Positions 1,206 to 60,907 of a DNA stretch of 64,000 bases are shown in pieces. This stretch comes from Candidatus Woesearchaeota archaeon. Its GTDB lineage: Archaea; Nanobdellota; Nanobdellia; SCGC-AAA011-G17; PNOQ01. Below the pieces are notes generated by a model. That model ran no database searches. It saw only the letters and a list, made by a program, of their open reading frames with translations, and was not told the DNA's origin. Position 1 is the first letter of the stretch. Each line of letters starts with the position of its first letter. Location of the stretch: assembly GCA_964344655.1 (NCBI GenBank), contig CAYFOF010000002.1, positions 56,768-120,767 of the forward strand, given 5' to 3'. A program made the translations under genes and the position numbers.

Positions 1206-1559
1206 TTATTCTTCTTTTTCTTCCTCAGCTGGTTCTTCGGAAGTTTCTTCTTCCTCAGCAGCAGGCTCTTCTTCAGTAGGAGCATCTTCTTCTCCACCAA
1301 ATTCTTCTACTTTAGTTTCAGCAACTTCTTCGTTTGCTTCTTCTAAATCAGTTCTTTCACTGCCTTTTTGAAGTAATTGTACATTCAAAGCCTGTTTTCC
1401 TTTTTCTGTTTCAGTTGGCTCAAATGAAACTTGATCATTTTCTCTCAAAAATACTCTTTTGTCTAGAGCTGTATGATGTAAAAAATAATCTTCTCCGTCT
1501 TCGCCTTTTACGAATCCGTATCCCTTTCTTATGTTATACCATTTTACTGTTCCTTCCAT
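1206..1559 (-). CDS. cold-shock domain protein with long acidic C-terminal tail
   Basis: The N-terminus GTVKWYNIRKGYGFVKGEDGEDYFLHHTAL matches the CspA-type cold-shock domain (RNP1-like KGYGFV). It is followed by a roughly 45-aa E/A/P-rich tail. Confidence 0.75.
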   Translation of the reverse strand: MEGTVKWYNIRKGYGFVKGEDGEDYFLHHTALDKRVFLRENDQVSFEPTETEKGKQALNVQLLQKGSERTDLEEANEEVAETKVEEFGGEEDAPTEEEPAAEEEETSEEPAEEEKEE

Positions 1560-1688
1560 TTTTTCCTCCTAATACAATATCTGAAAGATTTAACTTCGGT
1601 ATTGTTATGATTTTTTAACATTTAATCTATTTATAAATGTTTGGATGGACAACTACTGAAAATGCAAACTATATTTTTTCTTAGATAA

Positions 1689-2573
1689 ATGATTATAAAG
1701 AAATGCATAATAAAAAACCTAAAGATGGAAAAACCTCAAAATCCAAGAGCAGATGCAATAATTGGTACAACTTTTCCTTGTTTAGATCATGGTTTTATTA
1801 GATTGGTAGACTATATGGGAAATGATGAAGCAATAGTACAAGCAGCAAGAGTAAGTTATGGTGCAGGAACAAAAACAACATCTGAAGATAAAGGACTATT
1901 AAGATACATGTTAAGGCATGGACACAGCTCTCCATTTGAGATGGTAGAATTAAAATTACACGCAAAAGTGCCAATATTTGTGGCAAGACAATGGATAAGA
2001 TATAGAACTGCAAATGTAAATGAGGTAAGTATGAGGTACTCTTTGCCTCCTAAAGAATCATATGTTCCCGAATTAGAAGATGTTAGGGCTCAAAGCTTAA
2101 CAAACAAACAAGGGAGATCAGATGAAGGATTAGATCCAAGAATACAAAATGATGTAAGAAATGCAATAGCAGACCACAATGAAAGATCATCAGAATTGTA
2201 TAAAGTCTTTCAAGGAGAAGATATTGCTAGAGAATTAGCTAGAACAGTAAAACCAGTTGGAACATACACTGAATGGTATTGGAAAAATGATCTTAGAAAT
2301 GTATTCCATTTTTTAAATCAAAGATTAGATACTCATGCTCAAAAAGAAATAAGAGTATACGCCGAAGCAATGTCTGAAATAGTAAAAAATGTTGTTCCAA
2401 CAGCATATGAAGCTTTCGAAGATTATATATTGAATGCGGTTACTTTTTCAGGCCCAGAAATGAATGCGCTAGAAAAGATATTAACAAGAAAAGCAGACCC
2501 AGAAGAAGCAGGGCAAAAACAAGGATTAAAGGGAAGAGAGTTGAGAGAATTTTTAGCCAAATTACCTAAGTAA
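1689..2573 (+). CDS. thyX: flavin-dependent thymidylate synthase ThyX
   Basis: ThyX signature RHGHSSPFE...ARQWIRYRT (RHR...S motif). The true start may be Met13 (MEKPQN). Confidence 0.8.
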   Translation: MIIKKCIIKNLKMEKPQNPRADAIIGTTFPCLDHGFIRLVDYMGNDEAIVQAARVSYGAGTKTTSEDKGLLRYMLRHGHSSPFEMVELKLHAKVPIFVARQWIRYRTANVNEVSMRYSLPPKESYVPELEDVRAQSLTNKQGRSDEGLDPRIQNDVRNAIADHNERSSELYKVFQGEDIARELARTVKPVGTYTEWYWKNDLRNVFHFLNQRLDTHAQKEIRVYAEAMSEIVKNVVPTAYEAFEDYILNAVTFSGPEMNALEKILTRKADPEEAGQKQGLKGRELREFLAKLPK

Positions 2574-3512: not shown

Positions 3513-4013
3513 ATGAAAAATTTCTTAATCACAATCTTAATAATTCTCTCAATTTTAAATCTAACTTTCTTAATAGAAATTTCAAAAAACGAAGATTTAA
3601 GCAATTTTTACTATAAAGGAGAAGAACTTCCCGAAGAATACACAAACAAAGAAAAAATCCACATGCAAGAAGTTAAAGACTTAGTAAATGCATCATTAAT
3701 ATTTAATTTATTATTATTCTCAACATTTCTAATAAAACAAAAAACAAATACAAAACAAATAGGAAAATATCTAATCTTAACCTCATTATTTTTATTCGTA
3801 GCAGCAATATTCTTCCAAAAATTCTTTCACAATTTCCATTTAATATTTTTCAACGGAGATAATTGGCTTCTTCCAGCATCTTCAAAATTAATACAAACAT
3901 ATCCATTAAGCTACTTTAGAAATATATTCTTAATAATTAACACAATTTATCTAATAATTGGAATTACTCTATACAAAAAACTATACATTTTCTTCCAAAG
4001 AGCTATCAGATAA
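3513..4013 (+). CDS. integral membrane protein
   Basis: 166-aa ORF with several hydrophobic helices. No family recognised. Confidence 0.35.
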   Translation: MKNFLITILIILSILNLTFLIEISKNEDLSNFYYKGEELPEEYTNKEKIHMQEVKDLVNASLIFNLLLFSTFLIKQKTNTKQIGKYLILTSLFLFVAAIFFQKFFHNFHLIFFNGDNWLLPASSKLIQTYPLSYFRNIFLIINTIYLIIGITLYKKLYIFFQRAIR

Positions 4014-4265
4014 ATTTTCTTTTAATCTTTTTTCTAATTCTTTAAAACACATTTCTTGGGATTTCTCAGAAAAATATTTTGATATGAATTCTCCAAATAT
4101 ATAAGTCAAAGAACTGAAAATAATCATAGTATCATCTATCTCACCATTTGTTATTGATTCAACTGCCCCATAGGCTGTTCCAGCGATTCCAGCAATTTTT
4201 AAGGCGCCTGCAGTAAAATATCCAACTGAAACTCCATCATTAAAGTTCATATTATTATATGTCAT
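3981..4265 (-). CDS. hypothetical small protein
   Basis: 94-aa ORF with a Gly/Ala-rich segment (GALKIAGIAGTAYGA). Confidence 0.25.
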   Translation of the reverse strand: MTYNNMNFNDGVSVGYFTAGALKIAGIAGTAYGAVESITNGEIDDTMIIFSSLTYIFGEFISKYFSEKSQEMCFKELEKRLKENLSDSSLEENV

Positions 4266-4295
4266 AAAAAAAGAAACAATAAGTAATTTATAAAT

Positions 4296-5453
4296 TTATC
4301 CTAACTTCTTCAATTTATTCAAAGCTTCGTTCAAAATTTTAATTTCTTCCATTGTATTATACAAATAAAAACTAGCTCTAGCACTTCCCTCAACATTATT
4401 CGCGTTAAACCAAGAATGCATACAATGTTGTCCGCTCCTTATCATTATATTATCAGAAGTATCTAAAATGGTAGCAACTTCATGGAAATTAACTCCAGGA
4501 ACATTAAAATTAACAATTCCACCATTATTTCTTCCAATTAATTTCAAACCAGAAACATCAACAGCCTTTCTTAATTTAATTTCATGTTCTTTTATTTCAT
4601 TCATACCAATCTTAGATAAATATTTAACAGCAGCACCAAGACCAATAATTCCAGAATAATTTTGTAATCCTCCCTCAAATTTATGAGGAATTTTTTCCAT
4701 AACAAAATCATTATATGTACTATTCATTACAGTCTCTCCACCAGTAATAAACTGTTTCATATTATTCAACAATTCTTCTTTCCCATAAAACACTCCAACT
4801 CCAGAAGACCCTAGCATTTTATGTCCAGAAAAAGATAAATAATCTAAATCTAATTTTTTAACATTAATTTCATTATGTGGAACAAATTGAGCACCATCTA
4901 AATGAACTTTAACATTATTTTCATGTGCAATTTTTATTATCTCTTTTATGGGCAAAGTATACCCATCTAAATTAGAAGTTGCAACAAAACTAATCAACTC
5001 ATAATTTTTTACACTCTCAGAAAATCTTTCTAAATTAAAAGTAAAATCCAAATTCGATCTCATAATTCCCTGTTTAAATCTTTGCCATGGAATTAAATTA
5101 GAATTATGTTCTCTATCTGTTAGTAAAACTCTTTCACCATCAAAAGAATTAGCTAATAAATTAATACTCTCAGTAGTATTTTTAGTAAATACGATTTCAC
5201 TCTCTTTCTTTGCACCAATAAAATCTTTAACTAATTTTCTAGCATTATTTACTTCATCATTAACTTTATTTCCAAATTTATGAATACTTCTTCCAGCACA
5301 AGCAGGATATTCATTATAATACTCAACAACTTTATCTACAACTTGTTTAGGTCTCAAAGTCATACAAGCAGAATCAAAATATATTGCTTTTTTCTTCAAT
5401 ACCGGAAAATCCTCTCGAATCTTTTCAACATTCATCACAAGAACAAATAACAA
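4296..5453 (-). CDS. cysteine desulfurase, class V aminotransferase, SufS/NifS-like
   Basis: PLP-lysine motif SFSGHKMLG and active-site region RSGQHCMHS (compare RSGHHCA of SufS). The 385-aa length is typical. The start may be Met7 (MNVEKI). Confidence 0.75.
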   Translation of the reverse strand: MLFVLVMNVEKIREDFPVLKKKAIYFDSACMTLRPKQVVDKVVEYYNEYPACAGRSIHKFGNKVNDEVNNARKLVKDFIGAKKESEIVFTKNTTESINLLANSFDGERVLLTDREHNSNLIPWQRFKQGIMRSNLDFTFNLERFSESVKNYELISFVATSNLDGYTLPIKEIIKIAHENNVKVHLDGAQFVPHNEINVKKLDLDYLSFSGHKMLGSSGVGVFYGKEELLNNMKQFITGGETVMNSTYNDFVMEKIPHKFEGGLQNYSGIIGLGAAVKYLSKIGMNEIKEHEIKLRKAVDVSGLKLIGRNNGGIVNFNVPGVNFHEVATILDTSDNIMIRSGQHCMHSWFNANNVEGSARASFYLYNTMEEIKILNEALNKLKKLG

Positions 5454-5869: not shown

Positions 5870-6349
5870 CTATCCTTCACAAGATCCACATTCACATTCT
5901 GTACCACACGTTTCACACATGCCATTCACACATTGAGGGTCTCCACAGTCAACAACTTCATCAGTAACTTCTCCACCTTCACCAGTTAAAATACAGAAAG
6001 GATTATCTCCTTCTTCTCCAGGAGGACCATTACAATTATCATAAACTATAACATTATACAAAGCCTGTCCACTGAAAAATAACGAAACAAAAAACAAGAT
6101 AACAAAAGCCCAAGAAACTACTTCAAAATATTTATGCACTCCTCTCGCTAACTTAGTAGATTTTCCCATTAATTTTCCAACGATTTTACTTTTTACCTTT
6201 ACATCTAAACCAGATTGACATTTTCTTAAAGTAACTCTTCTAAAAACACAATCAAAAGCTTCTTTAGCTAATGGTCGATAACTTGCCGAAAATATTGCAA
6301 GTACACCAAAAACTATCAAGCTTAATAGGCATATCATAAAACAAAACAA
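5870..6349 (-). CDS. membrane protein with Cys-rich C-terminal domain
   Basis: Two hydrophobic helices followed by CGDPQCVNGMCETCGTECECGSCEG. Confidence 0.35.
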   Translation of the reverse strand: MFCFMICLLSLIVFGVLAIFSASYRPLAKEAFDCVFRRVTLRKCQSGLDVKVKSKIVGKLMGKSTKLARGVHKYFEVVSWAFVILFFVSLFFSGQALYNVIVYDNCNGPPGEEGDNPFCILTGEGGEVTDEVVDCGDPQCVNGMCETCGTECECGSCEG

Positions 6350-6380: not shown

Positions 6381-6782
6381 TCAATCTTTTTTATATACTC
6401 TTTTACGTGTATCTTCAATAGATAATTTTCTAGACTCATCTAAAACTAAATCAGTAAGCCCACCATCTCCATCAATTTCATACACTGGTAAACCCTTCTT
6501 AACTAAAAACTCCGCTTCTTCATAAACACCCGAACTAAACATTCCATCATCAAAAGCTAAAAAAACTCCAGCATTCATTTCAGGTAAAACTTCTTCAAAA
6601 AAATAAGTCATTCCAAATTCTTTATATCCCTCATCATGACACTCTTGATTTGGATTTTCAACATACCATTCTGGAAACCCTCTTTTAATAGAATTAATCA
6701 ATAACGTTTCAAAAGTTGTGTCATAAGTATTAATGGGATGCCCAAAATATACTTTTTTCATAAATACAATAAATAAAAACAA
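6381..6782 (-). CDS. hypothetical protein, possibly nucleoside 2-deoxyribosyltransferase-like fold
   Basis: 133-aa ORF. The pattern YFGHP...GVFLAFDDGMFSSGVYEEAEFLVKKGLPVYEI weakly resembles the NDT/DUF4406 family. Not verifiable here. Confidence 0.25.
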   Translation of the reverse strand: MFLFIVFMKKVYFGHPINTYDTTFETLLINSIKRGFPEWYVENPNQECHDEGYKEFGMTYFFEEVLPEMNAGVFLAFDDGMFSSGVYEEAEFLVKKGLPVYEIDGDGGLTDLVLDESRKLSIEDTRKRVYKKD

Positions 6783-6791
6783 TATATAACG

Positions 6792-7313
6792 TTATCTCGC
6801 TTTAAACCCATACTTAATTTTCCTTATTTCTGGATGTCCTTCTAAATATAAATCACAAAAATGCTCAATAATCTCTCCAAAAGGAACAGGACTAGTAACT
6901 TCAAAAGTGCCAACTCTATCAAAAGTCAATAAACTCTCAATCCCTCCAGTTGTAATAATATTTCCACCTTCTATTTTACAAGGTTTCACCCTATACCCAT
7001 AAGGCAAATGCTGATTAATTATCCTTCTTGTATATTCGTCAAATTCTTTCTTCCTATGCATCATTTTTTCTACTTCCAAAAATTTCGGCAATAAAACTGT
7101 TTCAAACCAAAACTTTCGAGAATCAGCTGAAACATTTGGTATATAAATTAATCGGTTTCCATCAAAAAACAATCTTTCAGTAGAATTCAAGTTTAATTCA
7201 AAATTATGATCAAGAATGTCTGCTAAATCATGAGAATCCCCAGCAAATATATCAATAACATCTCTAAAACTATCATAAATCTCAACACAGTCTTCTTTTA
7301 TTTCATACTTCAT
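6792..7313 (-). CDS. hypothetical protein
   Basis: 173-aa ORF with no motif recognised. Confidence 0.3.
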   Translation of the reverse strand: MKYEIKEDCVEIYDSFRDVIDIFAGDSHDLADILDHNFELNLNSTERLFFDGNRLIYIPNVSADSRKFWFETVLLPKFLEVEKMMHRKKEFDEYTRRIINQHLPYGYRVKPCKIEGGNIITTGGIESLLTFDRVGTFEVTSPVPFGEIIEHFCDLYLEGHPEIRKIKYGFKAR

Positions 7314-7322
7314 AACAATTAA

Positions 7323-7784
7323 CTATTTTAATCCCTTCAAAAAACCCATATAATGTTCATGCAATCTTCCCAAAAACAGTTTTATATGTTCATCACTCAT
7401 CTCAGCGCATTCCCTTTCAAGCAAACTCGTTCTAACTCCATCAACAAAATTAGTTAAATCAGTTTTTCCCAAGGGAGATATTGATAAAGATCCAATAGTA
7501 ATATTATCTAACATAAAAATTAAGTCTTTATGTCTTTCTTCTTCAAATCTAAAAGGTCTATGTGGTGTTGGTCGCCATACTCTATGCATTTCACCAAACA
7601 ATCTATGTAAAGATACAGATCCATATATATTTCTAGCACCAGAGATACGACAATTATATCCTTTCACTGCATAATCAGTTCCCTCATGTCTTACTTCATA
7701 TTCAAAAGTTCTATCAAAATCAACTGGTTTTATTATTTCTGACATAAAAAAGATGAATAATGAATTCTTTAAATATCTTTCCAT
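7323..7784 (-). CDS. hypothetical protein
   Basis: 153-aa ORF with no motif recognised. Confidence 0.3.
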   Translation of the reverse strand: MERYLKNSLFIFFMSEIIKPVDFDRTFEYEVRHEGTDYAVKGYNCRISGARNIYGSVSLHRLFGEMHRVWRPTPHRPFRFEEERHKDLIFMLDNITIGSLSISPLGKTDLTNFVDGVRTSLLERECAEMSDEHIKLFLGRLHEHYMGFLKGLK

Positions 7785-7819
7785 AATAATTATATACTAA
7801 TAACAAACTCAAAAAACAC

Positions 7820-8569
7820 ATGATAGATCCTGTAGCTATAAATCTGGGAACAATCCAAATACGTTGGTATGGAATAATAATGGCTTTTGGATTTCTATTA
7901 GCATATTTCATTTCTCAAAAACTAGCCAAGTATAGAAATATTTCAAAACAAGATATGTCTGATTATTTCATTTACTTCATAATCTCTTCAATAGTTGGAG
8001 CAAGACTTTGGGCAGTAATATTAAACTATCAAAATTACACAAACATATTAGAAATATTTGCCGTTTGGAATGGCGGAATGGCAATCCACGGGGGAATTGC
8101 TGGAGCAGCTCTTGCAACATATTATTTCTCAAAAAAAAGAAATATTCATTTTTATGACATTGCAGATATAATGGTTATCCCAACAGCATTAGGTTTAGCT
8201 TTAGGGAGAATTGGAAATTTCATAAATCAAGAATTTTACGGCAAACCAACTTCATTACCGTGGGGAGTATACTTCGATAACATTGAAGGAAAAAGACATC
8301 CCTCACAAATTTATGAATCTCTAAAAAATTTATTAATTTTTGGAATAACCTTAAAACTATTCTTATTTAAGAAATTAAAAAGAGGAACAATATTTTGGAC
8401 ATTTATTTTATTATATTCATTACTAAGATTTTCTGTAGAATTTTTCAAAGACATGCCAACATTCCTAAACTTAACTTATGGACAAATAATCTCAATACCG
8501 TTAATTATAATTTCAATAATAATGTTAAAAAGAATAGCAAATCCTACGCAACATTTAAATAACAATTAA
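7820..8569 (+). CDS. lgt: prolipoprotein diacylglyceryl transferase (Lgt)
   Basis: Lgt signature GLALGRIGNFINQEFYGKPTSLPWGVYFD and RHPSQIYE, matching E. coli Lgt GRIGNFINGELWGR and HPSQLYE. The protein has multiple TM helices and is 249 aa. Confidence 0.8.
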   Translation: MIDPVAINLGTIQIRWYGIIMAFGFLLAYFISQKLAKYRNISKQDMSDYFIYFIISSIVGARLWAVILNYQNYTNILEIFAVWNGGMAIHGGIAGAALATYYFSKKRNIHFYDIADIMVIPTALGLALGRIGNFINQEFYGKPTSLPWGVYFDNIEGKRHPSQIYESLKNLLIFGITLKLFLFKKLKRGTIFWTFILLYSLLRFSVEFFKDMPTFLNLTYGQIISIPLIIISIIMLKRIANPTQHLNNN

Positions 8570-8608: not shown

Positions 8609-9640
8609 TTGGAAGAAAACATGAACATAGAAAATAAACAAGAAGAAAATGTTCCAGTTACTAAAACTACTAAAAAAAACAATTGGAAAATAGCTAGTTT
8701 CATACTAGGAATTCTACTTGTAGTTAGCATCATTTCAAATACAGGATTATTATCGATTTCTGGAAATGCTGCAGCAGTTGATGCTGTTGAGTTCATAAAC
8801 AATCAAATGTTACAAGGACAAACAACAGCAACATTAGAAGACGTAACCAAAGAAAGTGGGTTAATAAAAGCAACAATTAATGTCGAAGGACAACAAACAC
8901 CAATTTATCTATCAAACGATGGAAAATTAATGTTCTTACAGGCCGTTCCAATTACGGGAGCAACAACAGCGACACCAACACAAAATTCTCCACAACCAGT
9001 AGATGTTCCAAAATCAGATAAACCGGTTGTAGACTTATTCGTAATGTCTCACTGTCCATACGGAACTCAAATGGAAAAAGGAATTTTACCTGTTGTTAAA
9101 GTTTTACAAGACGATATTGATTTCAATTTGAAATTTGTTTACTATGCAATGCATCCAACTCAAGGTGAAGTTGAAGAACAATTAAACCAATACTGTATTC
9201 AAAAAGAACAAGAAGATAAATTACTAGATTATCTATACTGTTTCCTTGAAGACGGTGACGGAGAAAGATGTTTAACAGAAACAAATATCGACACCGCAAA
9301 ATTAAAAACTTGCTATGAAAGCGCAGATGCAGAATTTGAAATAACTAAAAACCTAGAAGATAAATCTTTATGGTTAAATGGAAGATTCCCATTATTTAAC
9401 ACTGATAAATCAGACAATGAAAAATACAGTGTGGGTGGATCCCCAACATTAGTTATTAATGGAAAAACTGCAAGTTCTGGAAGAGACTCTGTCTCTCTAC
9501 TAAGCACAATTTGTGGAGCATTCAACGATGCACCAGAAGCTTGTACAATAACTGAATTCGAAGCTGGTTCTCCAGCACCAGGATTTGGATGGAGTACAAC
9601 TGCACAAGCAAATAGCGCAGCCGCTGGCTGTGGCTATTAA
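8609..9640 (+). CDS. secreted/membrane-anchored thioredoxin-fold (DsbA-like) protein
   Basis: N-terminal TM anchor. It carries SHCPYG (a monothiol variant of CPYC) and a later GGSPTLVINGK motif typical of the DsbA/thioredoxin fold. The C-terminal half is Cys-rich. Confidence 0.45.
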   Translation: MEENMNIENKQEENVPVTKTTKKNNWKIASFILGILLVVSIISNTGLLSISGNAAAVDAVEFINNQMLQGQTTATLEDVTKESGLIKATINVEGQQTPIYLSNDGKLMFLQAVPITGATTATPTQNSPQPVDVPKSDKPVVDLFVMSHCPYGTQMEKGILPVVKVLQDDIDFNLKFVYYAMHPTQGEVEEQLNQYCIQKEQEDKLLDYLYCFLEDGDGERCLTETNIDTAKLKTCYESADAEFEITKNLEDKSLWLNGRFPLFNTDKSDNEKYSVGGSPTLVINGKTASSGRDSVSLLSTICGAFNDAPEACTITEFEAGSPAPGFGWSTTAQANSAAAGCGY

Positions 9641-10405: not shown

Positions 10406-11885
10406 AGGATATAAAGACATAATCTCAAATTATTTCGACGATCATTCATTCGTTGAATCAAATATAAAATCTTTCAACAGATTTGTTGAAAAAGATTTAC
10501 CTACAATAGTTAACAACGTTGGGGAAATAGTTCCAACAATTATTCCTCAAGAAGTTGAAAATTTCAAAATTAAATTATCCGACATTAAAGTTGGAATGCC
10601 ACAAATAACAGAAGCAGATGGTTCAAAAAGAGATTTATACCCAATAGAATCAAGATTAAGAAAATTAACTTACTCTGCACCAATTTCATTAACAGTAAGT
10701 GCACACATTAACGATATTCAAAGAGAATCATTCACAACAGAAGTTGGTAGACTTCCAATAATGTTAAAATCTAAATTCTGTCACCTTGCAAATTTGAAAA
10801 GAAAAGAATTAGTAAAAAAAGGTGAAGACCCAGTTGATTGGGGAGGATATTTCATATTAAATGGTAATGAAAGAGTATTAATCACAGTTGAAGATTTAGC
10901 TTCAAACAAATTATTTGTTAAGAAAGCAACAGTTGGTGTAAGTAAGTGGATTGGAAAACTTTACTCTGAACACTTAAATTACAGAATTCCACACACTTTC
11001 GAACAAATGAAAGATGGTTCATTACAACTTAGTTTTGCAAGATTCCAAAGAGTTCCAATTATTGCTGTAATTAAAGCACTTGGATTAACAAAAGATCAAG
11101 AAATTATGGAATTCATCTCACCAAACAAAGTTTACGACGATGTAATATTGAACTTATACGAAAACATCGATCTAAAAACTCAAAATGAAGCTCTAGAATT
11201 CTTAGCTAAAAAAATAGGAATGCCACAAAAAGAACTTAGAGAAGAAAGAACACTAGAACAATTAGACAGATATTTACTTCCACACATTGGTATGACTTCA
11301 AAAGATAGAATTTACAAAGCATACAACTTATGTAAACTAGTAAAGAGATTCTTAAAAATCACAGCAGATGGTGCAAAACCAATTAATCAAGATCACTACG
11401 TAAATAAAAGATTAAAACAAAGCGGAGACTTACTTAATGATTTATTCAAAGTAAACATGAGGTCATTGGTACAAGATATGCTTTACAATTTCCAAAGACT
11501 AGTTAAGAGAGGAAAATTCTCTTCAATTAGAATAATCATCCGAGAACAATTATTATCTTCTAGAATTAAAAGCGCTATGGCAACTGGATCATGGCCAGGT
11601 GGAAGAGCAGGTATTTCTCAAAACATTTCAAGAGTAAATGCAGTAGATACAACTTCACACACTCAAAGAGTTGCATCTTTACTAACTGCATCTCAAGAAA
11701 ATTTTGAAGCAAGAGCTTTACACAGCACTCATTGGGGAAGACTTTGCCCTGTTGAAACACCAGAAGGTACTCCAATTGGATTAAGAAAAAATTTAGCATT
11801 ATTATCAAACGTAACAGACACAGAACCAACTGAAGAAAAAGTTGTGAAATTATTAGAATCAAATGGGATGAAAAAGGTAGAATAA
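10398..11885 (+). CDS. rpoB2: DNA-directed RNA polymerase subunit B'' (N-terminal part of RpoB)
   Basis: 495-aa ORF. Typical split archaeal RpoB. Ends 1 nt before B'. Confidence 0.85.
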   Translation: MVKGYKDIISNYFDDHSFVESNIKSFNRFVEKDLPTIVNNVGEIVPTIIPQEVENFKIKLSDIKVGMPQITEADGSKRDLYPIESRLRKLTYSAPISLTVSAHINDIQRESFTTEVGRLPIMLKSKFCHLANLKRKELVKKGEDPVDWGGYFILNGNERVLITVEDLASNKLFVKKATVGVSKWIGKLYSEHLNYRIPHTFEQMKDGSLQLSFARFQRVPIIAVIKALGLTKDQEIMEFISPNKVYDDVILNLYENIDLKTQNEALEFLAKKIGMPQKELREERTLEQLDRYLLPHIGMTSKDRIYKAYNLCKLVKRFLKITADGAKPINQDHYVNKRLKQSGDLLNDLFKVNMRSLVQDMLYNFQRLVKRGKFSSIRIIIREQLLSSRIKSAMATGSWPGGRAGISQNISRVNAVDTTSHTQRVASLLTASQENFEARALHSTHWGRLCPVETPEGTPIGLRKNLALLSNVTDTEPTEEKVVKLLESNGMKKVE

Positions 11886-11886
11886 A

Positions 11887-13689
11887 ATGGTTGATGTATT
11901 TTTAAACGAAAAATTTGTAGGAACTGTAGCAGATCAAAATGAATTCCTAAACTCAATCAAATCTCAAAGAAGAGAAGGAGTAATCCCAGAAAAATTAAAC
12001 GTTGGTTACGACGATGCATTAAATGAAATCCACATAGAAACAACAAAAGGTAGATCTAGAAGACCTTTAATCGTTGTAAAAAATGGAGAACCAACACTAA
12101 CAGAAGAACATCTTGAAAAATTAAAAAATAAAACAATCACTTGGGATGATTTATTGAAAGATGGAATAATTGAATATCTAGATGCAAGAGAAGAAGAAAA
12201 TGCTTTAGTAGCTTTAGATGAATCACAACTATCAAAAGAACACACTCACATAGAAATTTCACCAATCACAATTTTAGGTGTTTGTACATCTTTAGTTCCA
12301 TTCTCAAATTTTGGTTCATCTTCAAGATTAATTAGAGGTTCTAAACTTCAAAAACAAGGTTTAGGAGTATACACCCAAAATTACTTATTAAGACTAGACA
12401 CTGACGCTAGCATTTTACATTATCCACAAAGACCAATTACAAAAACATTCATGCATGATGTATTCGAATACGATGCGCACGCAATGGGTCAAAACCTAAC
12501 TATTGCAGTTATGAGCTACCAAGGATATAACATGCAGGACGCAGTCATATTAAACAGAGGTAGTGTTGAACGTGGTCTAGGAAGAACAACATACTTTAAG
12601 CCATTCTCTGCTACAGAATTAAGATATTCTGGTGGATTAATGGATGAAATAGGAATTCCAGACAAAGAAATGAAAGGTTATAGATCAGAAAGAGACTATA
12701 GAAACCTTGAAGATGATGGAATTGTTTTCACAGAAGCAAAATTAGATGAAGATGATGTATTAATAGGAAAAACTTCCCCGCCAAGATTCTTGGGAAGCTT
12801 AGAAGAATTCAACATTGATGCTAATACAAGAAGAGAATCCTCAATCGCTTTAGGTGAAGGAATGCACGGAATAGTTGATATGACATTCTTAACTGAAAAC
12901 GAAGAAGGAAATAGGATTGTTCAAACAAGATTAAGACAACAAAGAATTCCAGAGATTGGAGATAAATTCGCTTCAAGACATGGTCAAAAAGGTGTTATTG
13001 GATTATTAGTTCCACATGTTGATATGCCATTCTCTTCAAGAGGAACAACTCCAGATATAATTTTCTCACCACACAGTATACCTTCAAGAATGACGGTATC
13101 ACATTTATTAGAAGTAATTTCAGGTAAAGTTGGAGCTTTAGCTGGAGAATACATAGACGCTACAACTTTCGATACACCAACAGAAGATAGTTTAAGAAAA
13201 CAACTTGTAAACTTAGGATTTTCAGAAGATGGAAAAGAAACATTCTACAACCCATTAACTGGAGAAAAATTAGAAGCAAAAATATATACTGGAAACATAT
13301 TCTACTTAAAACTAAAACATATGGTAGCTAACAAATTACACGCAAGAGCTGCTGGAAGAATCCAACTATTAACACGTCAACCCGTAGAAGGTAGAGCAAT
13401 GGGCGGAGGATTAAGAGTGGGAGAGATGGAGAAAGATTGTTTAGTAGCTCACGGTGCATCTCTATTACTTAAGGAAAGATTCGATTCAGATAAAACAATA
13501 TTACATGTTTGTGAAACATGTGGTATGTTTGCAACATATGACAATTACAAAAATCAAGCAATATGTACAAGGTGCGGAGGAGACGCAAAAGTTTCACCTG
13601 TTGAAATGAGTTACGCATTCAAACTATTGTTAGATGAAATAAGATCTCTAGGAATAGATTCTAGAGTAGAACTAAAAGAAAAATTTTAG
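11887..13689 (+). CDS. rpoB1: DNA-directed RNA polymerase subunit B' (C-terminal part of RpoB)
   Basis: 600-aa ORF. Conserved GDKFASRHGQKG and C-terminal Zn motif CETCG...CTRCG. Confidence 0.9.
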   Translation: MVDVFLNEKFVGTVADQNEFLNSIKSQRREGVIPEKLNVGYDDALNEIHIETTKGRSRRPLIVVKNGEPTLTEEHLEKLKNKTITWDDLLKDGIIEYLDAREEENALVALDESQLSKEHTHIEISPITILGVCTSLVPFSNFGSSSRLIRGSKLQKQGLGVYTQNYLLRLDTDASILHYPQRPITKTFMHDVFEYDAHAMGQNLTIAVMSYQGYNMQDAVILNRGSVERGLGRTTYFKPFSATELRYSGGLMDEIGIPDKEMKGYRSERDYRNLEDDGIVFTEAKLDEDDVLIGKTSPPRFLGSLEEFNIDANTRRESSIALGEGMHGIVDMTFLTENEEGNRIVQTRLRQQRIPEIGDKFASRHGQKGVIGLLVPHVDMPFSSRGTTPDIIFSPHSIPSRMTVSHLLEVISGKVGALAGEYIDATTFDTPTEDSLRKQLVNLGFSEDGKETFYNPLTGEKLEAKIYTGNIFYLKLKHMVANKLHARAAGRIQLLTRQPVEGRAMGGGLRVGEMEKDCLVAHGASLLLKERFDSDKTILHVCETCGMFATYDNYKNQAICTRCGGDAKVSPVEMSYAFKLLLDEIRSLGIDSRVELKEKF

Positions 13690-29715: not shown

Positions 29716-30390
29716 ATGACTCAAGAATTGAAATATAAAACAGAGGAAGCACGAGAAATAGAGGGTGCAACAATCCTAAATATTGAAGATCATGAAGATT
29801 TTCCAGAGGTTGAACCAGAACTTCCAGGATTTTCTTACAAACTTTCAGTTGCAAAAAGAATAGCTCTAGATTTAGTAGATCTAGCAAGAAATGGTCCATT
29901 TTACGAAAAAAAAGTAACTCAAGTACCACAACCATTTGGATACAAAAAATTAAGAACAATGTATGTTGGTGCAGAAAATGATTTACATGCCGTTATTGAA
30001 CAAAATGGTTTAGAAGGAACAGGCCATGTAAAAGATGATCCAAGAGTTACAGAGCTAGGAAAAATCTTAAGAAGAACTTCTTTAGATGAAATCCCTGGAA
30101 TTTTAAGTGTAACAAAAGGAGATATTGAATTAGTTGGCCCAAGACCAATAACTCCAATTGATGAAGAACATTTACCTCAAGAATATTGTGAAGCAATTAG
30201 AGGAAGATATGGATGGTTGCCTCCCTCAGGAATAAGACCAGGTAAAAAAACTCAAGAAATGAGAGTAAAAGAAGATTTAGCATTCCTAAAATTATTAGAT
30301 AAACATCCAGATAAAAAAGCAGAAATAATGGCATATTATGCTCCAGTAATTATTTTTAATTATTTAACAAAAAGAGTTAGAAACGAATAA
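29716..30390 (+). CDS. phosphoglycosyl (sugar) transferase, PglC/WbaP C-terminal domain family, lacking hydrophobic membrane hairpin
   Basis: KRIALDLVDLA aligns with KRIFDFILALV of PglC. GKILRRTSLDEIPGILSVTKGDIELVGPRP aligns with the conserved catalytic block (DE dyad present). The segment that forms the re-entrant helix is charged here (ARNGPFYEKK). Confidence 0.6.
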   Translation: MTQELKYKTEEAREIEGATILNIEDHEDFPEVEPELPGFSYKLSVAKRIALDLVDLARNGPFYEKKVTQVPQPFGYKKLRTMYVGAENDLHAVIEQNGLEGTGHVKDDPRVTELGKILRRTSLDEIPGILSVTKGDIELVGPRPITPIDEEHLPQEYCEAIRGRYGWLPPSGIRPGKKTQEMRVKEDLAFLKLLDKHPDKKAEIMAYYAPVIIFNYLTKRVRNE

Positions 30391-37634: not shown

Positions 37635-38180
37635 ATGATTCTAGAAAGCTTGAGCAACGGACTTGAAAGAGCAATTTACATTCTAAGCCAACCATTAAGC
37701 AATGAAAATTTAATGTGGATTTTAGTTCCATTATTTTTAACATTAATTTTAATGGAACTTTACTTTGGAAGATACAAAAAAGAAGAACTTGGTTGGAATA
37801 CCGCATTCGGAAATTCATTAATTTTAATTTTCGTATCTGCAAATTTAATTAATCATTTAATAAACAATAATTTATGGGCAGATCCAGTAAAAGCAGGAGT
37901 AGTTTTCACACTGTTAATTCTGGGATTTACATTAACATTATTGGATTACTTCCATGCTCTGCCAGAAAAACTTGCATTTACAGTATCTTCAAAATTCCCA
38001 ATAAGTTTCATAGCATTTTTAGCAATATTATTTGTATACATTGACATTCCATTAGACACAACAACATTAGTTGCATTAACATTAATATTTTTAGCAGCAT
38101 ATTTGGTAATTTCAATAGTTCACTTCTTAACTCCAACATTCCATGGATTAATGTCTCAAGAAGTTCCTGATCCAGAATAA
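37635..38180 (+). CDS. integral membrane protein
   Basis: 181-aa ORF with about five hydrophobic helices. Confidence 0.35.
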   Translation: MILESLSNGLERAIYILSQPLSNENLMWILVPLFLTLILMELYFGRYKKEELGWNTAFGNSLILIFVSANLINHLINNNLWADPVKAGVVFTLLILGFTLTLLDYFHALPEKLAFTVSSKFPISFIAFLAILFVYIDIPLDTTTLVALTLIFLAAYLVISIVHFLTPTFHGLMSQEVPDPE

Positions 38181-38214: not shown

Positions 38215-38703
38215 ATGGATAGCGATTACTATGAAAATTTAATAGAAAAAACACCATACAAAGATTTGCCTTTTATAGGAAAAATTGCAAAGGGAATGAA
38301 ATTTGTAGAAAAAACAGTAAAAAGATTGGCACTAGCCATTCCAATATCATATTTTTTGTTTTATGCATGCACAGATGAGATTATATTTTCTAGGGTAAAT
38401 AAAAAAGAAAAATTCAATAAATCACAATTAGAAGAATTACTAAATGTTGAAAAAAAACAATTAGGTTGTAGCGAGGATATTGAAATAGTCATCAATGACA
38501 GAAACGGAGCAGCAGCAATAAAAGAAAACGGAAAATATAGAATAGAAATTGGAGAAAATTATAGAACCAGAGATATATTGAGACACGAACTATACCACAT
38601 CCACGATGGGCATGTGAAAGAGGGAGGAGTCTCTCCATTAGATTATATATTTTGGCTAGAGCCCCAAGCTAGAATCTTTCAGCTCACAGGAATAAAATTA
38701 TAA
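38215..38703 (+). CDS. hypothetical protein with HExxH-like motif (possible Zn peptidase)
   Basis: RHELYHIHDGH. Confidence 0.3.
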   Translation: MDSDYYENLIEKTPYKDLPFIGKIAKGMKFVEKTVKRLALAIPISYFLFYACTDEIIFSRVNKKEKFNKSQLEELLNVEKKQLGCSEDIEIVINDRNGAAAIKENGKYRIEIGENYRTRDILRHELYHIHDGHVKEGGVSPLDYIFWLEPQARIFQLTGIKL

Positions 38704-39398: not shown

Positions 39399-39983
39399 TT
39401 ATCTCTTTTTCGATCCATAATTATTTACAATATACAAAACAATAATAGCCAATAACAAAATCCAAGTAATTGAACAATAATTAAATCCTTTTACACCAAT
39501 TTCCCCAGGTTCATCTATTAATAAACACCCTTCATCATCTTGACACACATAACCTTCATCACAACCCAAATCTTCTGACCAATCTAAACAATTATCACTA
39601 TCATAATAGCCACATCTTTTATACACAACATCATCAGAACAAACTAAATCCCCCGGATTACACTCATCTTCGCAACTAATAACTCCCGGAATTACTGGAT
39701 CTACCTCACTATTATCATTTTCATCAGAACATCCAGGATCTAATGGAAAATCAATTAATCCATCTTCATCATTATCAATCCCATCATCACAATCATAAAT
39801 AATACTTCCGCCAGAAGAACCTCCAGAAGGAGTTTCGCCAGAAGATGACTCTCCAATCACAAGTGTACTTCCCACAGAAGCTTCAGAACTAGGAGAAAAA
39901 ACTAAATTCCCAGATAAACATAAAACAAAAAAAATAACAAAAAGAACAATAAAAATCCAAATTGAATTATTTTTTATATTCAT
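39399..39983 (-). CDS. secreted Cys/Asp-rich protein with C-terminal TM anchor
   Basis: Signal peptide. Calcium-binding-like CDDGIDNDEDGLIDFPLDPGC. C-terminal hydrophobic helix followed by a basic tail (GSKKR). Confidence 0.4.
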   Translation of the reverse strand: MNIKNNSIWIFIVLFVIFFVLCLSGNLVFSPSSEASVGSTLVIGESSSGETPSGGSSGGSIIYDCDDGIDNDEDGLIDFPLDPGCSDENDNSEVDPVIPGVISCEDECNPGDLVCSDDVVYKRCGYYDSDNCLDWSEDLGCDEGYVCQDDEGCLLIDEPGEIGVKGFNYCSITWILLLAIIVLYIVNNYGSKKR

Positions 39984-40613: not shown

Positions 40614-41243
40614 TTATACGCAACCAGTAGTTGTTTCAACCCCCTCAAACCATATAACATTACTATATGTTCCTTTTGGTTGTCCAGCATCAACATCTAA
40701 CCAAAATCTATAATTATTCTGACTTCCTGGAGCAACATCTGTACTTCCTAAAACATAATTAGTTGTTAAAGCAGTTCCAGGCAAAGTAGGATTACTAATA
40801 TCGTTTAAAACAGAATCATCCCAAACATAATTTGTTAAAGGAATTGTATCTAAAGCAAGATTTGTTAAAGGTCCATCAGATCTTAAACAAAAATCAACAT
40901 TTACATTAGAATCAGTACTTATTGCTATATCATATCCAGTTTGATCACTTACATCAAAATTTGCAGTAGCACTTTGAGCAACAACAGGTAAATTTTCAAT
41001 AGTACCAAAATCAATACCACCACTTAAATCAGTTGATAATGACAACGCAAGATAAGCAGAAATAGTAACTGAAGATGGGGCAGAAGCCTCAACAGCTTTC
41101 CCAGTTATTGGCACAGTATTATTCTCATCAAAAGTTAAATTTGTAAATAAACCAAAAACCGCAAAGGCAAAAACAAAAATAAGAGCAGATAAAGTAATAT
41201 TTTCAACCCTATTCGATTTTTTCACCACTTTCTTTTTAGGCAT
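40614..41243 (-). CDS. secreted/surface protein, paralogous C-terminal domain with 41275..42309
   Basis: Basic N-terminus followed by a hydrophobic helix. C-terminal TNYVLGSTDVAPGSQNNYRFWLDVDAGQPKGTYSNVIWFEGV is similar to the C-terminus of the next protein. Confidence 0.4.
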   Translation of the reverse strand: MPKKKVVKKSNRVENITLSALIFVFAFAVFGLFTNLTFDENNTVPITGKAVEASAPSSVTISAYLALSLSTDLSGGIDFGTIENLPVVAQSATANFDVSDQTGYDIAISTDSNVNVDFCLRSDGPLTNLALDTIPLTNYVWDDSVLNDISNPTLPGTALTTNYVLGSTDVAPGSQNNYRFWLDVDAGQPKGTYSNVIWFEGVETTTGCV

Positions 41244-42381: not shown

Positions 42382-43092
42382 ATGTTAAAAGGAAAAGTTG
42401 CAATTGTTACCGGAGGAACAAGTGGAATCGGTGAAGGGATTGCAAATAAATTCAAAAAAGAAGGTGCAAAAGTGGTTGTTTCTGCAAGAAAAAAAGTTAA
42501 AACAAAACACCATTTCATAAAATGCGATGTTACAAACCCTGAAGATGTAAAAAACTTAGTAAAAGAAACAATAAAAAAATACAAAAAAATTGACATTCTA
42601 GTAAACAATGCAGGAATTTATCCTTTCGTTGAATTCAAAAACATGACTGAGCAACAATGGGATCAAGTTATTGATGTAAATCTAAAAAGTTTATATCGTG
42701 TAACTCATGAAGTTCTTCCACATATGATAAAAAGAAAATCTGGAAAAATAATTAGTACTGCTTCAATTGCTGGAACAACAGTAGGATACCCAAATTTAGT
42801 ACATTATTGTGCATCCAAGGCTGGAGTAATGGGTTTCACAAGAGGCTTAGCATTAGAACTAGCAAAATTAAATATTCAAGTTAATGCAATAGCTCCTGGA
42901 ATTATATACACCCCCGGAGTAAAAAAAGGTTTAGACGCAAAAACAATTAAAGCTCTAAAAAACACAGTTCCAGCAGGAAGAACCGGAAAACCCGAAGATA
43001 TTGCAGCAACTGCAGCTTTCTTAGCATCAGATGAATCACAATACACAACCGGACAAACACTAGTAGTAGACGGTGGATTCACAAATCAATAA
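42382..43092 (+). CDS. short-chain dehydrogenase/reductase (FabG-like)
   Basis: TGGTSGIGEGIA Rossmann motif, NNAG, and catalytic YCASKAG. Confidence 0.8.
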   Translation: MLKGKVAIVTGGTSGIGEGIANKFKKEGAKVVVSARKKVKTKHHFIKCDVTNPEDVKNLVKETIKKYKKIDILVNNAGIYPFVEFKNMTEQQWDQVIDVNLKSLYRVTHEVLPHMIKRKSGKIISTASIAGTTVGYPNLVHYCASKAGVMGFTRGLALELAKLNIQVNAIAPGIIYTPGVKKGLDAKTIKALKNTVPAGRTGKPEDIAATAAFLASDESQYTTGQTLVVDGGFTNQ

Positions 43093-49534: not shown

Positions 49535-50839
49535 ATGAAGTATTATCTAACAATAGTAATAATTCTACTGATAATATCTACTGTTGCAGCAGATTCAGAA
49601 AGTACACAATTTGGATTAGATAGAAGAACTTCTGAAATAATTAAACCAATTAACATAACAAACACCACAATAAACATTACAGAACCAATAAATATAACAG
49701 ATAATATAACAGACTTAATAAACATAACCGATAATACTACAATAATCATAATTCCAATAAATTTAACAAATTTCACGGAGTTAAATATAACAAGAAACGA
49801 AACAATAAATATAACAATTAACGAAACAATAAATATAACAATTAACGAAACAATAAATCAAACAAACACTACAATAAAACCAGAAGAAATAATATTATCT
49901 CCACCAATCCAAGAAGATTTTACAACTTATTTTTACGCAGGAAATAGATTAATTGCAACAAAAAATAATGAGAATATAAAATACCACTATCAAGACCATT
50001 TAGGTTCAGATATAAATTCTAAATCTCTCCCATTTGGACAACCACTAGATATACAAAACAGATTTTCATTTTCTGGAAAAGAATTCGATTTAGGAGAATA
50101 TTATTTCGGAGCAAGATATTACGATCCAAACTTAGGAAGATTTACTTCCGTAGATCCAATTAAAACAGAACCACCCTATCAATATGTAAGAAATAACCCA
50201 TTAAGATTCATAGATCCAGATGGAAGAGAAACAAAAGAAAAATATCAAAACTTAATATTATTCTCAGAAGCAATGAAAGTCACTCAAACACCATTAATAT
50301 TAAATTTCCCCACACAACAAGACGTAGATAATTATAGAACAACAGTTGTTGATTCATTAATATCAACAAATCAAAAAAATATATTAATAGATTTAGAAAA
50401 CGGAATTCCAATTTCAATCCCTGGTTACGGAGAATCTACAAAACTTCCATTATTCGGAACAAACTCAATAAACACATTATTTCAAATGGAAGTAAGTAAA
50501 AATGGTCCAATAGAAAACGTTATATTTTTCATGCATAGTGCAACAAACACTCCAGGTAATATAGTTCTAGAAATGCCTGGAACCCTCCCAAGCACAAGCG
50601 AACCAAAAATAGAATTAACAAACAGTCTACTTTCTTTACCAGATGAATATCTTGCTCCAAATGGACAAATAATCTTTGCAATTTGTCACACAGACACTTG
50701 CATAAATGGACAAGCAATTGCAGATAGTTTAGGAGTTACAGTTTACGTCTCACCAAACGAAGTAGAATTTGTTGAAGGAATATCGCCACCACTAATTTAC
50801 GGTCAATTCAACGAATATAAACCAAAAAAAGAAGATTAA
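49535..50839 (+). CDS. secreted, heavily N-glycosylatable RHS/YD-core protein with unknown C-terminal domain; polymorphic-toxin-like
   Basis: Signal peptide. More than 15 N-x-T sequons in about 90 aa. YD-like NRLIATKNNENIKYHYQDHLGSDI. RHS core terminus ARYYDPNLGRFTSVDP...YVRNNPLRFIDPDGRE. About 210 aa of C-terminal domain of unknown function. Confidence 0.6.
   Translation: MKYYLTIVIILLIISTVAADSESTQFGLDRRTSEIIKPINITNTTINITEPINITDNITDLINITDNTTIIIIPINLTNFTELNITRNETINITINETINITINETINQTNTTIKPEEIILSPPIQEDFTTYFYAGNRLIATKNNENIKYHYQDHLGSDINSKSLPFGQPLDIQNRFSFSGKEFDLGEYYFGARYYDPNLGRFTSVDPIKTEPPYQYVRNNPLRFIDPDGRETKEKYQNLILFSEAMKVTQTPLILNFPTQQDVDNYRTTVVDSLISTNQKNILIDLENGIPISIPGYGESTKLPLFGTNSINTLFQMEVSKNGPIENVIFFMHSATNTPGNIVLEMPGTLPSTSEPKIELTNSLLSLPDEYLAPNGQIIFAICHTDTCINGQAIADSLGVTVYVSPNEVEFVEGISPPLIYGQFNEYKPKKED
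49797..49860 (+). repeat. 24-nt tandem repeat (about 2.7 copies) inside the coding sequence
   Basis: acgaaacaataaatataacaatta, about 2.7 copies, encodes repeats of NETINITI. The third copy diverges at its end, changing the last repeat to NETINQT. Confidence 0.7.
49925..50150. repeat. copy of the RHS-core coding segment (paired, inverted, with 26130-26355)
   Basis: See paired entry 26130-26355. Confidence 0.6.
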
Positions 50840-51270
50840 TTTCTAATATGCCTAGAAAACATATTTGGATCGCCATCTTGATCAAAATAGAAAAATAATC
50901 CATCGCCAAGAGTATATATTTCTCCATAATCTTCAACTAACTTTTCTGTAGTTGGATCATAAATTCCTAATCTCTCTAAATCACTTACGGAATTTGCTCT
51001 ATATATATCTCCATTAGCAAAATAATGATTAATAACTCCACTAGATTGGCCCTCAAAATGAGTATACAAACTATCTTTTTCAGCTTGTGAGATTGGAACT
51101 AATTGCGCATTAATAGAATCTTCTAAACAATTTCTAGTCGGAGAACATCCCATGTGACTAGAATATGCACTTAAAGCCATTATACTTCCTAGAAAAGCGC
51201 CAAGTACTCTATTCAAAGGTTGTCTTGCAAATTCTTTCCAACTTCCACTGTGAAATTGTTTATCTTCCAT
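50836..51270 (-). CDS. hypothetical protein
   Basis: 144-aa ORF convergent with the RHS-core gene. Confidence 0.3.
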   Translation of the reverse strand: MEDKQFHSGSWKEFARQPLNRVLGAFLGSIMALSAYSSHMGCSPTRNCLEDSINAQLVPISQAEKDSLYTHFEGQSSGVINHYFANGDIYRANSVSDLERLGIYDPTTEKLVEDYGEIYTLGDGLFFYFDQDGDPNMFSRHIRN

Positions 51271-59860: not shown

Positions 59861-59987
59861 TAATCTATTTATAAAACTTACTTCTTTCTGTAAATTCTTC
59901 CATGAACATAAAAAGAAATCCCAACAACAAGTATTGTCAATCCAAAAACAACCCAAACTCCACCCATTGCATAACTAGGAGATAACA
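59861..59987. repeat. 127-bp exact direct repeat, copy 1 (3' end of a Cys-rich gene, the intergenic region and a TATA box)
   Basis: Identical by eye to 62199-62325. It encodes ...ILLSPSYAMGGVWVVFGLTILVVGISFYVHGRIYRKK* and contains TTTATAAA. Confidence 0.8.
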
Positions 59988-60876
59988 ATATTTTTTCAAC
60001 CCCTTGGTATTCATTTATTTGGGCAGCAGATTTTTGCACTCCATTCTCTTCGCTTTCATCAATTACAAACTGTTCAACCCCAATTATAGATGTACTTTCC
60101 TGAACAATATCATTTACATCATTGTCAGAAGAATCTCCAGAAGTTCCACTATAATCTGGAACACAACAAATTAACCCATGTCCATAACTAGTTTCACACT
60201 TTCTGTCATATCCAATATCACCATAATGAGAATATCCACTCAAACAACTATCAGTACAAACCCCGTTTACACTTGCACAATTATCTTGTACAGTAGCTCC
60301 ACTGGGACTATCATCTGCATAATTTTCACACCCACTAGTGTCATAAGCACAATTACTATTACAACTTATACTTCCAGTATCATGACCAAAATCACTACAA
60401 CTTTTACTAATTGCAGAACCATCACATTCTTCTCCAGAATCTACTACACCATTCCCACATAATTCTTCAACACATTCGTTACTCTCACAAGTACTTCCCG
60501 CATCACAACCACAATCATCACAACAATTGCTTGAATCTTCATCTCCTTCACACAAACCATCTCCACAAGTTGCACTCTCACAAGCACCCAAACCCGTAGC
60601 TCCACCCTCTTCATTACAATGTGGAGTATCACCAGGACAGCCACAAATAGTACACGCAGAAACTAAAGTACAAACACCAGCATCTTCTTCGCAATAAATT
60701 GGTTCATTCCCATCAACACAAGAGTTTGCTGGAGTACCATCTCCACACTCAGTACACCCATCGCCACCATCTATTGCACCACCAGCCTTACCAGTAAATA
60801 CATTTCCAAAATTAGTAAACATCAATACACTAACTAAAAACAAAGATACTAAAATAAACACATCTCTTTCTTTCAT
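59878..60876 (-). CDS. Cys-rich secreted protein with C-terminal TM anchor (paralog 1)
   Basis: Signal peptide. Many Cys in CGDG...EECD-type repeats. CASVNGVCTDSC...YDRKCETSYGHGLICCVP. C-terminal PSYAMGG-TM-RKK. Confidence 0.55.
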   Translation of the reverse strand: MKERDVFILVSLFLVSVLMFTNFGNVFTGKAGGAIDGGDGCTECGDGTPANSCVDGNEPIYCEEDAGVCTLVSACTICGCPGDTPHCNEEGGATGLGACESATCGDGLCEGDEDSSNCCDDCGCDAGSTCESNECVEELCGNGVVDSGEECDGSAISKSCSDFGHDTGSISCNSNCAYDTSGCENYADDSPSGATVQDNCASVNGVCTDSCLSGYSHYGDIGYDRKCETSYGHGLICCVPDYSGTSGDSSDNDVNDIVQESTSIIGVEQFVIDESEENGVQKSAAQINEYQGVEKILLSPSYAMGGVWVVFGLTILVVGISFYVHGRIYRKK

Positions 60877-60889
60877 AAAGATAAAATGA

Positions 60890-60902: not shown

Positions 60903-60907
60903 AAAGT

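Follow-up and report, generated by a model that had tools for sequence, protein, structure and literature searches.

A prolipoprotein diacylglyceryl transferase gene and a neighbouring Lit homologue in Woesearchaeota

Introduction

A stretch of 64,000 nucleotides from Candidatus Woesearchaeota archaeon, a tiny archaeon of symbiotic type (GenBank assembly GCA_964344655.1, contig CAYFOF010000002.1, positions 56,768 to 120,767; here called the window) contains an open reading frame (ORF) at 7820..8569 on the forward strand that resembles lgt, the bacterial gene for prolipoprotein diacylglyceryl transferase. Specialist papers published between 2018 and 2026 state that homologues of Lgt, Lsp and Lnt do not exist in archaea, and argue from that absence for a separate machinery, AliA/AliB, made necessary by the lipids of archaea. 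The locus raises the question of whether an archaeon possesses an orthodox Lgt and, if so, on which lipid the enzyme would act. The initial annotation took it as the general view that archaea lack lgt; this premise is borne out by the literature, in which no paper was found tying Lgt or SPase II to Woesearchaeota or DPANN. What is new is phyletic and contextual; calling the gene is routine, and NCBI and JGI already name these archaeal proteins prolipoprotein diacylglyceryl transferase in public annotation.

Identity of the lgt gene

The ORF starts with ATG and encodes a protein of 249 residues with seven transmembrane (TM) helices and a minimal head. It matches PF01790 (LGT) nearly end to end, residues 4-236 on profile positions 1-238 of 240, with E = 2e-74 and 250 bits against a gathering score of 24.9. 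It scores 195 bits with the NCBIfam equivalog TIGR00544 'lgt', for which the cut-off is 118.9, and it matches E. coli Lgt (5azb) at E = 3.8e-30; such agreement is far above chance. The two signature strings on which the gene was first recognised, GRIGNFINQEFYGK and RHPSQIYE, are both present.

Active-site residues were mapped on an alignment of 214 Lgt sequences in E. coli numbering; the E. coli sequence used for this was checked against the fragments of the 5azb match. Y26, H103, D129, R143, N146, E151, G154, H196, E202, Y235, R239 and E243 of the E. coli enzyme correspond to Y17, H90, D116, R130, N133, E138, G141, H160, E166, Y199, R203 and E207 of the query, and R246 corresponds to K210. 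The mapped positions are almost without variation in 52 archaeal-clade sequences, 37 of which have K and 15 R at the position of R246. A failed PF01790 search and missing catalytic residues had been named in the initial annotation as the results that would overturn it; the profile match is full-length and all the catalytic residues are kept on alignment, counting K210 for R246.

An AlphaFold2 model made with 43 homologues (pLDDT 91.9, pTM 0.87) consists of seven long helices. A Foldseek search of the PDB with this model gave 5azb (E = 2.8e-13, TM-score 0.87, root-mean-square deviation 2.6) as the sole match at E ≤ 0.001, and the next match had E = 0.37. The query and E. coli Lgt (5azb/5azc) share the seven-TM fold, the GRxGNFINxExxG signature and the essential residues, but their identity is just 27-30%, the head region (between the equivalents of G154 and R195) is 17 residues long in the query and 40 in E. 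coli, R246 has become K, and the host is an archaeon. The small-head Lgt proteins of Nitrospirota, Methylomirabilota and Clostridia are of similar length to the query, have heads of 15-18 residues (18 in Nitrospirota, 15 in Clostridia) and carry the same His at the H103 position. Their identity to the query, 38-42%, is the highest among labelled bacteria, but their gene neighbourhood is not that of the query. Profile, equivalog cut-off, catalytic residues and fold alike upheld the reading of the protein as a bacterial-type Lgt of an archaeal host, and we regard it as practically certain that this is a genuine Lgt gene of an archaeon.

A Lit homologue upstream of lgt

A second gene for bacterial lipoprotein maturation, which the initial annotation did not mention, lies 3.8 kb upstream of lgt (3513..4013, forward strand). 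It encodes a short-form homologue of Lit (lipoprotein intramolecular transacylase) of 166 residues with about four TM helices and a reduced cap. The match to PF07314 'Lit' (E = 1.1e-13, 52 bits, cut-off 24) covers profile positions 74-176 of 176 only, and the pairwise match to B. cereus Lit (7b0o) is weak (E = 0.038). Olatunji et al. single out in the latter enzyme the catalytic His85 and His153 together with Val89, Lys90, Phe149, the essentially invariant Phe157, and Trp162 (PMC8275575). In the order H85, V89, K90, F149, H153, F157 and W162, these align to the identical residues H50, V54, K55, F105, H109, F113 and W118 of the archaeal protein. Six of the seven (H50, V54, K55, H109, F113 and W118) are invariant in 32 archaeal Lit homologues; F105, the equivalent of Phe149, is kept in most of the 32 and falls outside the invariant or near-invariant columns.

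The AlphaFold2 model of the Lit homologue has a pLDDT of 93.6. Its six best matches in the PDB are all B. cereus Lit (TM-score 0.58-0.73, probability 1.0), the next match having E = 3.3, and the four-TM fold of Lit has been reported to be without structural relatives. The archaeal and B. cereus proteins have this fold and the seven residues in common, but the latter is about 218 residues long, identity is about 17%, and the extracellular cap is reduced in the archaeal form. Lit is known from Firmicutes, whereas here it is found in an archaeon; NCBI names the archaeal proteins 'DUF1461 domain-containing protein [Candidatus Woesearchaeota archaeon]'. The gene is syntenic with lgt in seven GTDB loci and two further contigs, so that the N-terminal modification step of lipoprotein maturation is represented beside the first one. 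In the Lit reaction the free alpha-amino group of diacylglyceryl-Cys receives the acyl chain that was ester-linked at sn-2 (PMC8275575). Conservation of the Lit gene beside lgt therefore speaks for both an ester-type diacylglyceryl modification and cleavage of the signal peptide directly before the Cys, and points to bacterial-type diacylglyceryl lipoproteins in this lineage.

Archaeal host and conservation of the locus

The lgt gene is on the same contig as the rpoH-rpoB-rpoA-S12-S7-EF2-EF1a operon, which starts 1.6 kb downstream. In order, the genes 3' of lgt are those for a thioredoxin-fold protein, tRNA-Asp, rpoH, split rpoB, rpoA'/A'', a NusA-like KH protein, S12, S7, EF-2, EF-1alpha and S10, and FttA, a proteasome subunit, TrmB and archaeal PheRS alpha/beta are encoded farther along the window. 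The GC content of lgt is 0.29 and that at third codon positions (GC3) is 0.21, the latter being 0.16-0.21 in the rpoB, rpoA and EF-2 genes of the host. The divergent intergenic region before lgt measures just 35 bp. A TATA-box-like element, TTATATA, can be read in it at 7790..7796 on the forward strand, 30 nt upstream of the ATG; it is suggestive of an archaeal promoter and of an lgt mRNA with no leader, or almost none.

The neighbourhood of lgt is kept in at least 12 independent metagenome-assembled genomes (MAGs) of Woesearchaeota and Nanoarchaeota, down to about 50% Lgt identity. The recurring block is DUF357 / Thy1 / Lit-like / Aminotran_5 / two-TM Cys-rich protein / lgt / DsbA-like / (tRNA) / rpoH-rpoB. 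It is present whole or in part in the GTDB loci L001-L011, at Lgt identities of 55-89%, and also in a 346-kb JGI contig. In two MAGs labelled Nanoarchaeota (L056/L057, 49% Lgt identity) the order before lgt is Lit ... Aminotran_5 ... Thy1, and lgt is followed by genes for a thioredoxin-like lipoprotein, a DsbA-like protein and a PlsC-like acyltransferase. A DsbA/Thioredoxin_4 protein again comes directly after lgt in locus L058 (53% Lgt identity); in L054, from a second group of Woesearchaeota, lgt instead follows a diaminopimelate (DAP)/lysine operon. None of the bacterial lgt loci compared has any neighbour of the archaeal block. Conservation of the block across loci argues for vertical inheritance of lgt. 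Because its composition is host-like and its neighbourhood is conserved in these MAGs, lgt is an old, vertically inherited trait of a DPANN (Woesearchaeota/Nanoarchaeota) clade, and neither contamination nor a recent transfer. Two origins had been considered at the outset, acquisition from bacteria and a minority archaeal lineage that uses the bacterial pathway; host composition and conserved synteny favour the second, and a recent acquisition by this genome falls away.

Three small genes without a family match (6381-7784, reverse strand) sit between the gene for the Cys-rich protein and lgt. They are common to the closest relative, L001, only, with one of the three also found in L003, and have for that reason been inserted recently into a locus that is otherwise conserved.

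Distribution and origin

The 120 best matches of the query Lgt in a collection of 5.8 billion proteins are 46-100% identical to it, and wherever the organism is named it is 'Candidatus Woesearchaeota archaeon', 'Nanoarchaeota archaeon' or 'archaeon'. The GTDB species genomes contain 13 archaeal lgt loci (Woesearchaeota, 'Nanoarchaeum sp.' and Nanobdellota; 43-89% identity), set against the 38-42% of the best labelled bacteria. An exhaustive HMMER search over 1.84 billion representatives returned 19,500 relatives with identity declining smoothly from 53%. The archaeal clade comprises more than 120 protein clusters. Concern that the family might turn out to be widespread and vertically inherited in archaea was thus justified within the DPANN clade, and not for Archaea as a whole.

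In a neighbour-joining tree of 214 sequences and 241 columns (100 bootstraps), 40 sequences came together as a core archaeal clade with a bootstrap of 69; the second Woesearchaeota group and L027 were placed elsewhere. With backbone support of about zero, no sister group to the archaeal Lgt was resolved among Nitrospirota, Methylomirabilota and Clostridia in this tree. The phylogeny called for by the initial annotation gave an archaeal core clade, and on its unsupported backbone resolved neither the monophyly of archaeal Lgt, nor the donor, nor one transfer as against several. Nearly all bacteria have Lgt, which RefSeq archaea lack (PMC13251419), and transfer from bacteria to DPANN is the parsimonious origin. 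The reported absence of Lgt from archaea reflects the sampling of RefSeq and of the arCOGs, not biology, and the phyletic statement is to be corrected: a whole DPANN clade has kept an orthodox Lgt, its active site intact, with Lit alongside.

Lipobox proteins and the remaining steps

Substrates were looked for with a strict lipobox, [LVI][ASTVI][GAS]C at the end of a signal peptide. As the initial annotation had stated, a scan of the window ORFs gave no convincing secreted protein of this kind. The sole strict match in the window, an ORF of 67 residues, was rejected as its N-region is not signal-peptide-like, and three near-misses, FYAC (38215-38703), FVLC (39399-39983) and HMGC (50836-51270), were not counted, being non-canonical.

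Canonical lipobox signal peptides are present in related lgt-positive archaeal DNA. They belong to a protein at 11267-11779 of L007 (MINFRKSLLTLLVSLVVGC); a GDPD-like glycerophosphodiesterase at 1434-2360 (reverse strand) of L008, with the ending ...AGIAAMLASC; a PLD-superfamily protein at 4161-5096 (reverse strand) of L056/L057 (MKKLIILVILVFISGC); and a CxxC thioredoxin-like protein of 118 residues encoded directly downstream of lgt in L056/L057 (MNKRVVSYIIIAVVIIIALIFFVGGC, ie MNKRVV...FFVGGC). A census of this related DNA gave four matches in 426 ORFs, where 0.64 were expected from shuffled N-termini. Among DPANN homologues of the PLD-superfamily protein, 67 of 120 have a strict lipobox (LVGC, ISGC, LTSC, LSGC and others), and the remainder mostly have an anchor that lacks Cys. 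The lipobox is clearly under selection in DPANN, in agreement with what Hong et al. 2025 found in their SignalP survey. The GDPD-like and PLD-superfamily proteins (NucT-like or phospholipase) are candidate lipoprotein-anchored scavenging enzymes. Assignment of the PLD-superfamily lipoprotein as a phospholipase was not adopted, since NCBIfam points at least equally to NucT-like nucleases.

The earlier observation that lspA is missing was likewise confirmed for the window: Pfam searches with about 65 window ORFs gave no Peptidase_A8 (LspA) and no Lnt (CN_hydrolase). A six-frame scan of the window and the first 51 loci for pairs of the LspA motifs FNxAD, GNxxDR and NxGxxF found none, and the related neighbourhoods annotated with Pfam were likewise without LspA. 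Two unannotated membrane proteins, 37635-38180 and 20219-20947, were tried as LspA and rejected, a PDB match to LspA being absent. The lipidation of a lipobox Cys in an archaeon is the task also of AliA/AliB (arCOG02177) of Haloferax volcanii. AliA has been reported in Euryarchaeota and DPANN 'with some gaps', and PF01790 Lgt is only marginally similar to it (PMC12462473).

The lipid donor and alternative explanations

Because the chemistry of Lit needs an ester-linked acyl chain, the donor used by the archaeal Lgt is most likely a bacterial-type ester phospholipid. In the scheme that we propose, secreted precursors whose signal peptide ends in a lipobox would be inserted in the membrane, and Lgt would bind a phosphatidylglycerol-type lipid via R130 and R203 (R143 and R239 in E. 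coli) and attach its diacylglyceryl group, through a thioether, to the thiol of the lipobox Cys. The signal peptide would then be cut before the Cys by a signal peptidase II activity, whose existence we infer, and the Lit homologue would pass the sn-2 acyl chain on to the alpha-amino group thus freed, so that lyso-form lipoproteins result. The ester phospholipid might be made by the bacterial-type lipid genes of the lineage or taken from a bacterial partner. That canonical Lgt chemistry feeds Lit on ester-type lipids, with an ultimately bacterial gene kept vertically, is in our judgement probable.

Several genes provide context for an ester lipid. A PlsC-type acyltransferase (PF01553, with the HX4D motif) is encoded two genes from lgt in L056/L057 (12117-12722, reverse strand); its score with TIGR00530 is 56 bits, below the cut-off. 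The window contains a gene for a FabG-like short-chain dehydrogenase/reductase (SDR) at 42382..43092 on the forward strand (adh_short_C2, E = 1.3e-67; NF009466 '3-oxoacyl-ACP reductase FabG', 244 bits, cut-off 222), from a family of bacterial-type fatty-acid synthesis, which serves as context only; SDR assignments are promiscuous. Castelle et al. 2021 described Woesearchaeota with bacterial fatty-acid-synthesis genes and a bacterial glycerol-3-phosphate (G3P) dehydrogenase, as well as murein-directed enzymes and possible bacterial hosts (PMC8204110).

Some of the results weigh against this account. No lipobox protein was found anywhere in the 64-kb window, and the census in related DNA, with four matches, is small. 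Searches of the window and of about 313 kb of DNA from related archaea, together a small part of the genomes, gave neither LspA nor Lnt, and in the DNA covered the step on which Lit depends is consequently without an assigned enzyme. The archaeal Lit is a short form without about 50 residues of the cap, and its TIGR01906 score of 60 bits is below the cut-off of 74.8, a shortfall that goes with the shortened cap and N-terminal part; the short Lit could act on another substrate. An ether-linked archaetidylglycerol could be the donor for Lgt itself. Finally, all the genomes compared are MAGs.

The main rival explanation is built on the ether-linked lipid. A working Lgt would have adapted to archaetidylglycerol and would transfer diphytanylglyceryl (archaeol), with the Lit-like protein otherwise employed. 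The host is, after all, an archaeon, and the lipoproteins of haloarchaea bear archaeol on the lipobox Cys (PMC12462473). The conserved arginines that bind the head group would recognise phosphoglycerol whatever the tails, and the short Lit falls below the NCBIfam cut-off. The glycerol stereochemistry of archaeal lipids is, however, opposite to that of the Lgt substrate. The His dyad and the aromatic cage of Lit are moreover kept in the query, six of the seven residues do not vary within the archaeal family, and the gene is syntenic with lgt. The sole known Lit reaction requires an ester-linked sn-2 acyl chain (PMC8275575), and genes of PlsC and FabG type occur in the lineage (see also PMC8204110). 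We consider an ether-lipid donor unlikely.

A retained homologue with another function, or with none in lipoprotein maturation (lipid remodelling, a non-protein acceptor, a relic), would agree with a window in which the scans gave neither a lipobox protein nor LspA, and archaea own AliA/AliB, which are present in part of DPANN (PMC12462473). The essential residues are nevertheless strongly kept over more than 120 clusters at 46-89% identity, which indicates purifying selection on a canonical Lgt active site, and canonical lipoboxes are frequent in DPANN secreted proteins, one of them encoded directly after lgt in L056/L057. This explanation is accordingly held to be very improbable. A mis-assembled or mis-binned bacterial fragment, or a gene that this one genome acquired very recently, might be suspected because every source is a metagenome assembly and DPANN bins are generally prone to contamination, but it is effectively refuted already by the archaeal genes on both sides of lgt on one contig with the RNA polymerase operon nearby, by a GC and GC3 equal to those of the host, by the identical gene order in independent NCBI, ENA and JGI assemblies, and by bacterial loci that share no neighbour with the archaeal lgt, so that we give it next to no credence.

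The ester-lipid account can be extended from the locus to its clade. That a large DPANN clade runs Lgt, a signal peptidase II activity and Lit in succession on ester-linked G3P-type phospholipids is put forward tentatively, with chances that we place somewhat below even. If it is true, Woesearchaeota and Nanoarchaeota carry membrane lipids of bacterial type, or make or steal them, and their lipoproteins are displayed in the lyso form; the 'lipid divide' would then have been crossed in nature, perhaps in adapting to hosts that are bacteria. As Lit makes sense only with ester-linked acyl chains, the two genes offer a genetic handle on the membranes of Woesearchaeota, of relevance to the lipid divide and to the bacterial hosts that these archaea are suspected of having. 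They also define a gap, the enzyme which cleaves lipoprotein signal peptides where LspA is not seen; this step could belong to a non-homologous peptidase.

Neighbouring thiol-redox genes

The gene directly 3' of lgt (8609..9640, forward strand) encodes an N-terminally anchored protein of the DsbA/thioredoxin fold with weak GILT and Thioredoxin_3 matches, in agreement with its initial description as a membrane-anchored thioredoxin-fold protein without a lipobox. Its orthologues lie directly 3' of lgt in ten loci and match DSBA/Thioredoxin_4 in the more distant genomes. The gap between the two genes is 39 bp and they are probably co-transcribed; a functional link to Lgt is inferred from adjacency only. 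The DsbA-like protein was ruled out as an Lgt substrate, since no orthologue has an N-terminal lipobox. The protein and its orthologues have a single-Cys CP[YF]G site in place of CxxC, and the orthologues (L001-L011, and L056 at 11156-12094) all have a Cys 0-2 residues from the C-terminus (..AAAGCGY*, ..AAGNC*), which could be a resolving cysteine or a site of modification.

On the other side, the divergent upstream neighbour (5870..6349, reverse strand) encodes a two-TM Cys-rich membrane protein whose gene adjoins lgt in 11 loci. Pfam and NCBIfam scans gave no match for it. Over its first 121 residues it shares 55% identity (E = 2e-40) with the N-terminal membrane module of a DsbA-fused protein in L056 (1754-2677), a hint that it is a candidate membrane partner of the DsbA-like protein, of the DsbB/VKOR kind. 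By the Rosetta-stone argument this fusion would place lgt inside an extracytoplasmic thiol-redox cluster.

Other envelope-related genes in the window

The window contains further bacterial-style envelope genes at 27514-30390, where the gene for GlmS (glutamine-fructose-6-P amidotransferase) adjoins that for a bacterial-type polyprenyl-phosphate sugar phosphotransferase (Bac_transf). The secreted protein encoded at 25461-26477 (reverse strand) has both an RHS repeat-associated core (TIGR03696) and a YkuD/ElsL-like L,D-transpeptidase/carboxypeptidase domain; this peptidoglycan-directed, toxin-like architecture hints at interaction with bacteria.

Three adjoining genes at 59878-63373 (reverse strand) encode Cys-rich secreted proteins without a family match (GGDGCTECGDG..., GGGGATCEDAAWETC...), whose N-terminal resemblances were judged by eye. 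Unrelated secreted proteins, namely those encoded at 8609-9640, 40614-41243, 59878-60876, 60908-62194 and 62216-63373, share a motif [ST]G[NKM]A (SGNA, TGKA, TGMA) soon after their hydrophobic N-terminal segment; 'TGxxV' strings like it come after the signal peptides of DPANN PLD-like proteins. The [ST]G[NKM]A motif occurs in 4 of 22 such window ORFs, compared with about 0.3 expected, a fifth case lying slightly farther out, and may be a lineage-specific processing or sorting signal.

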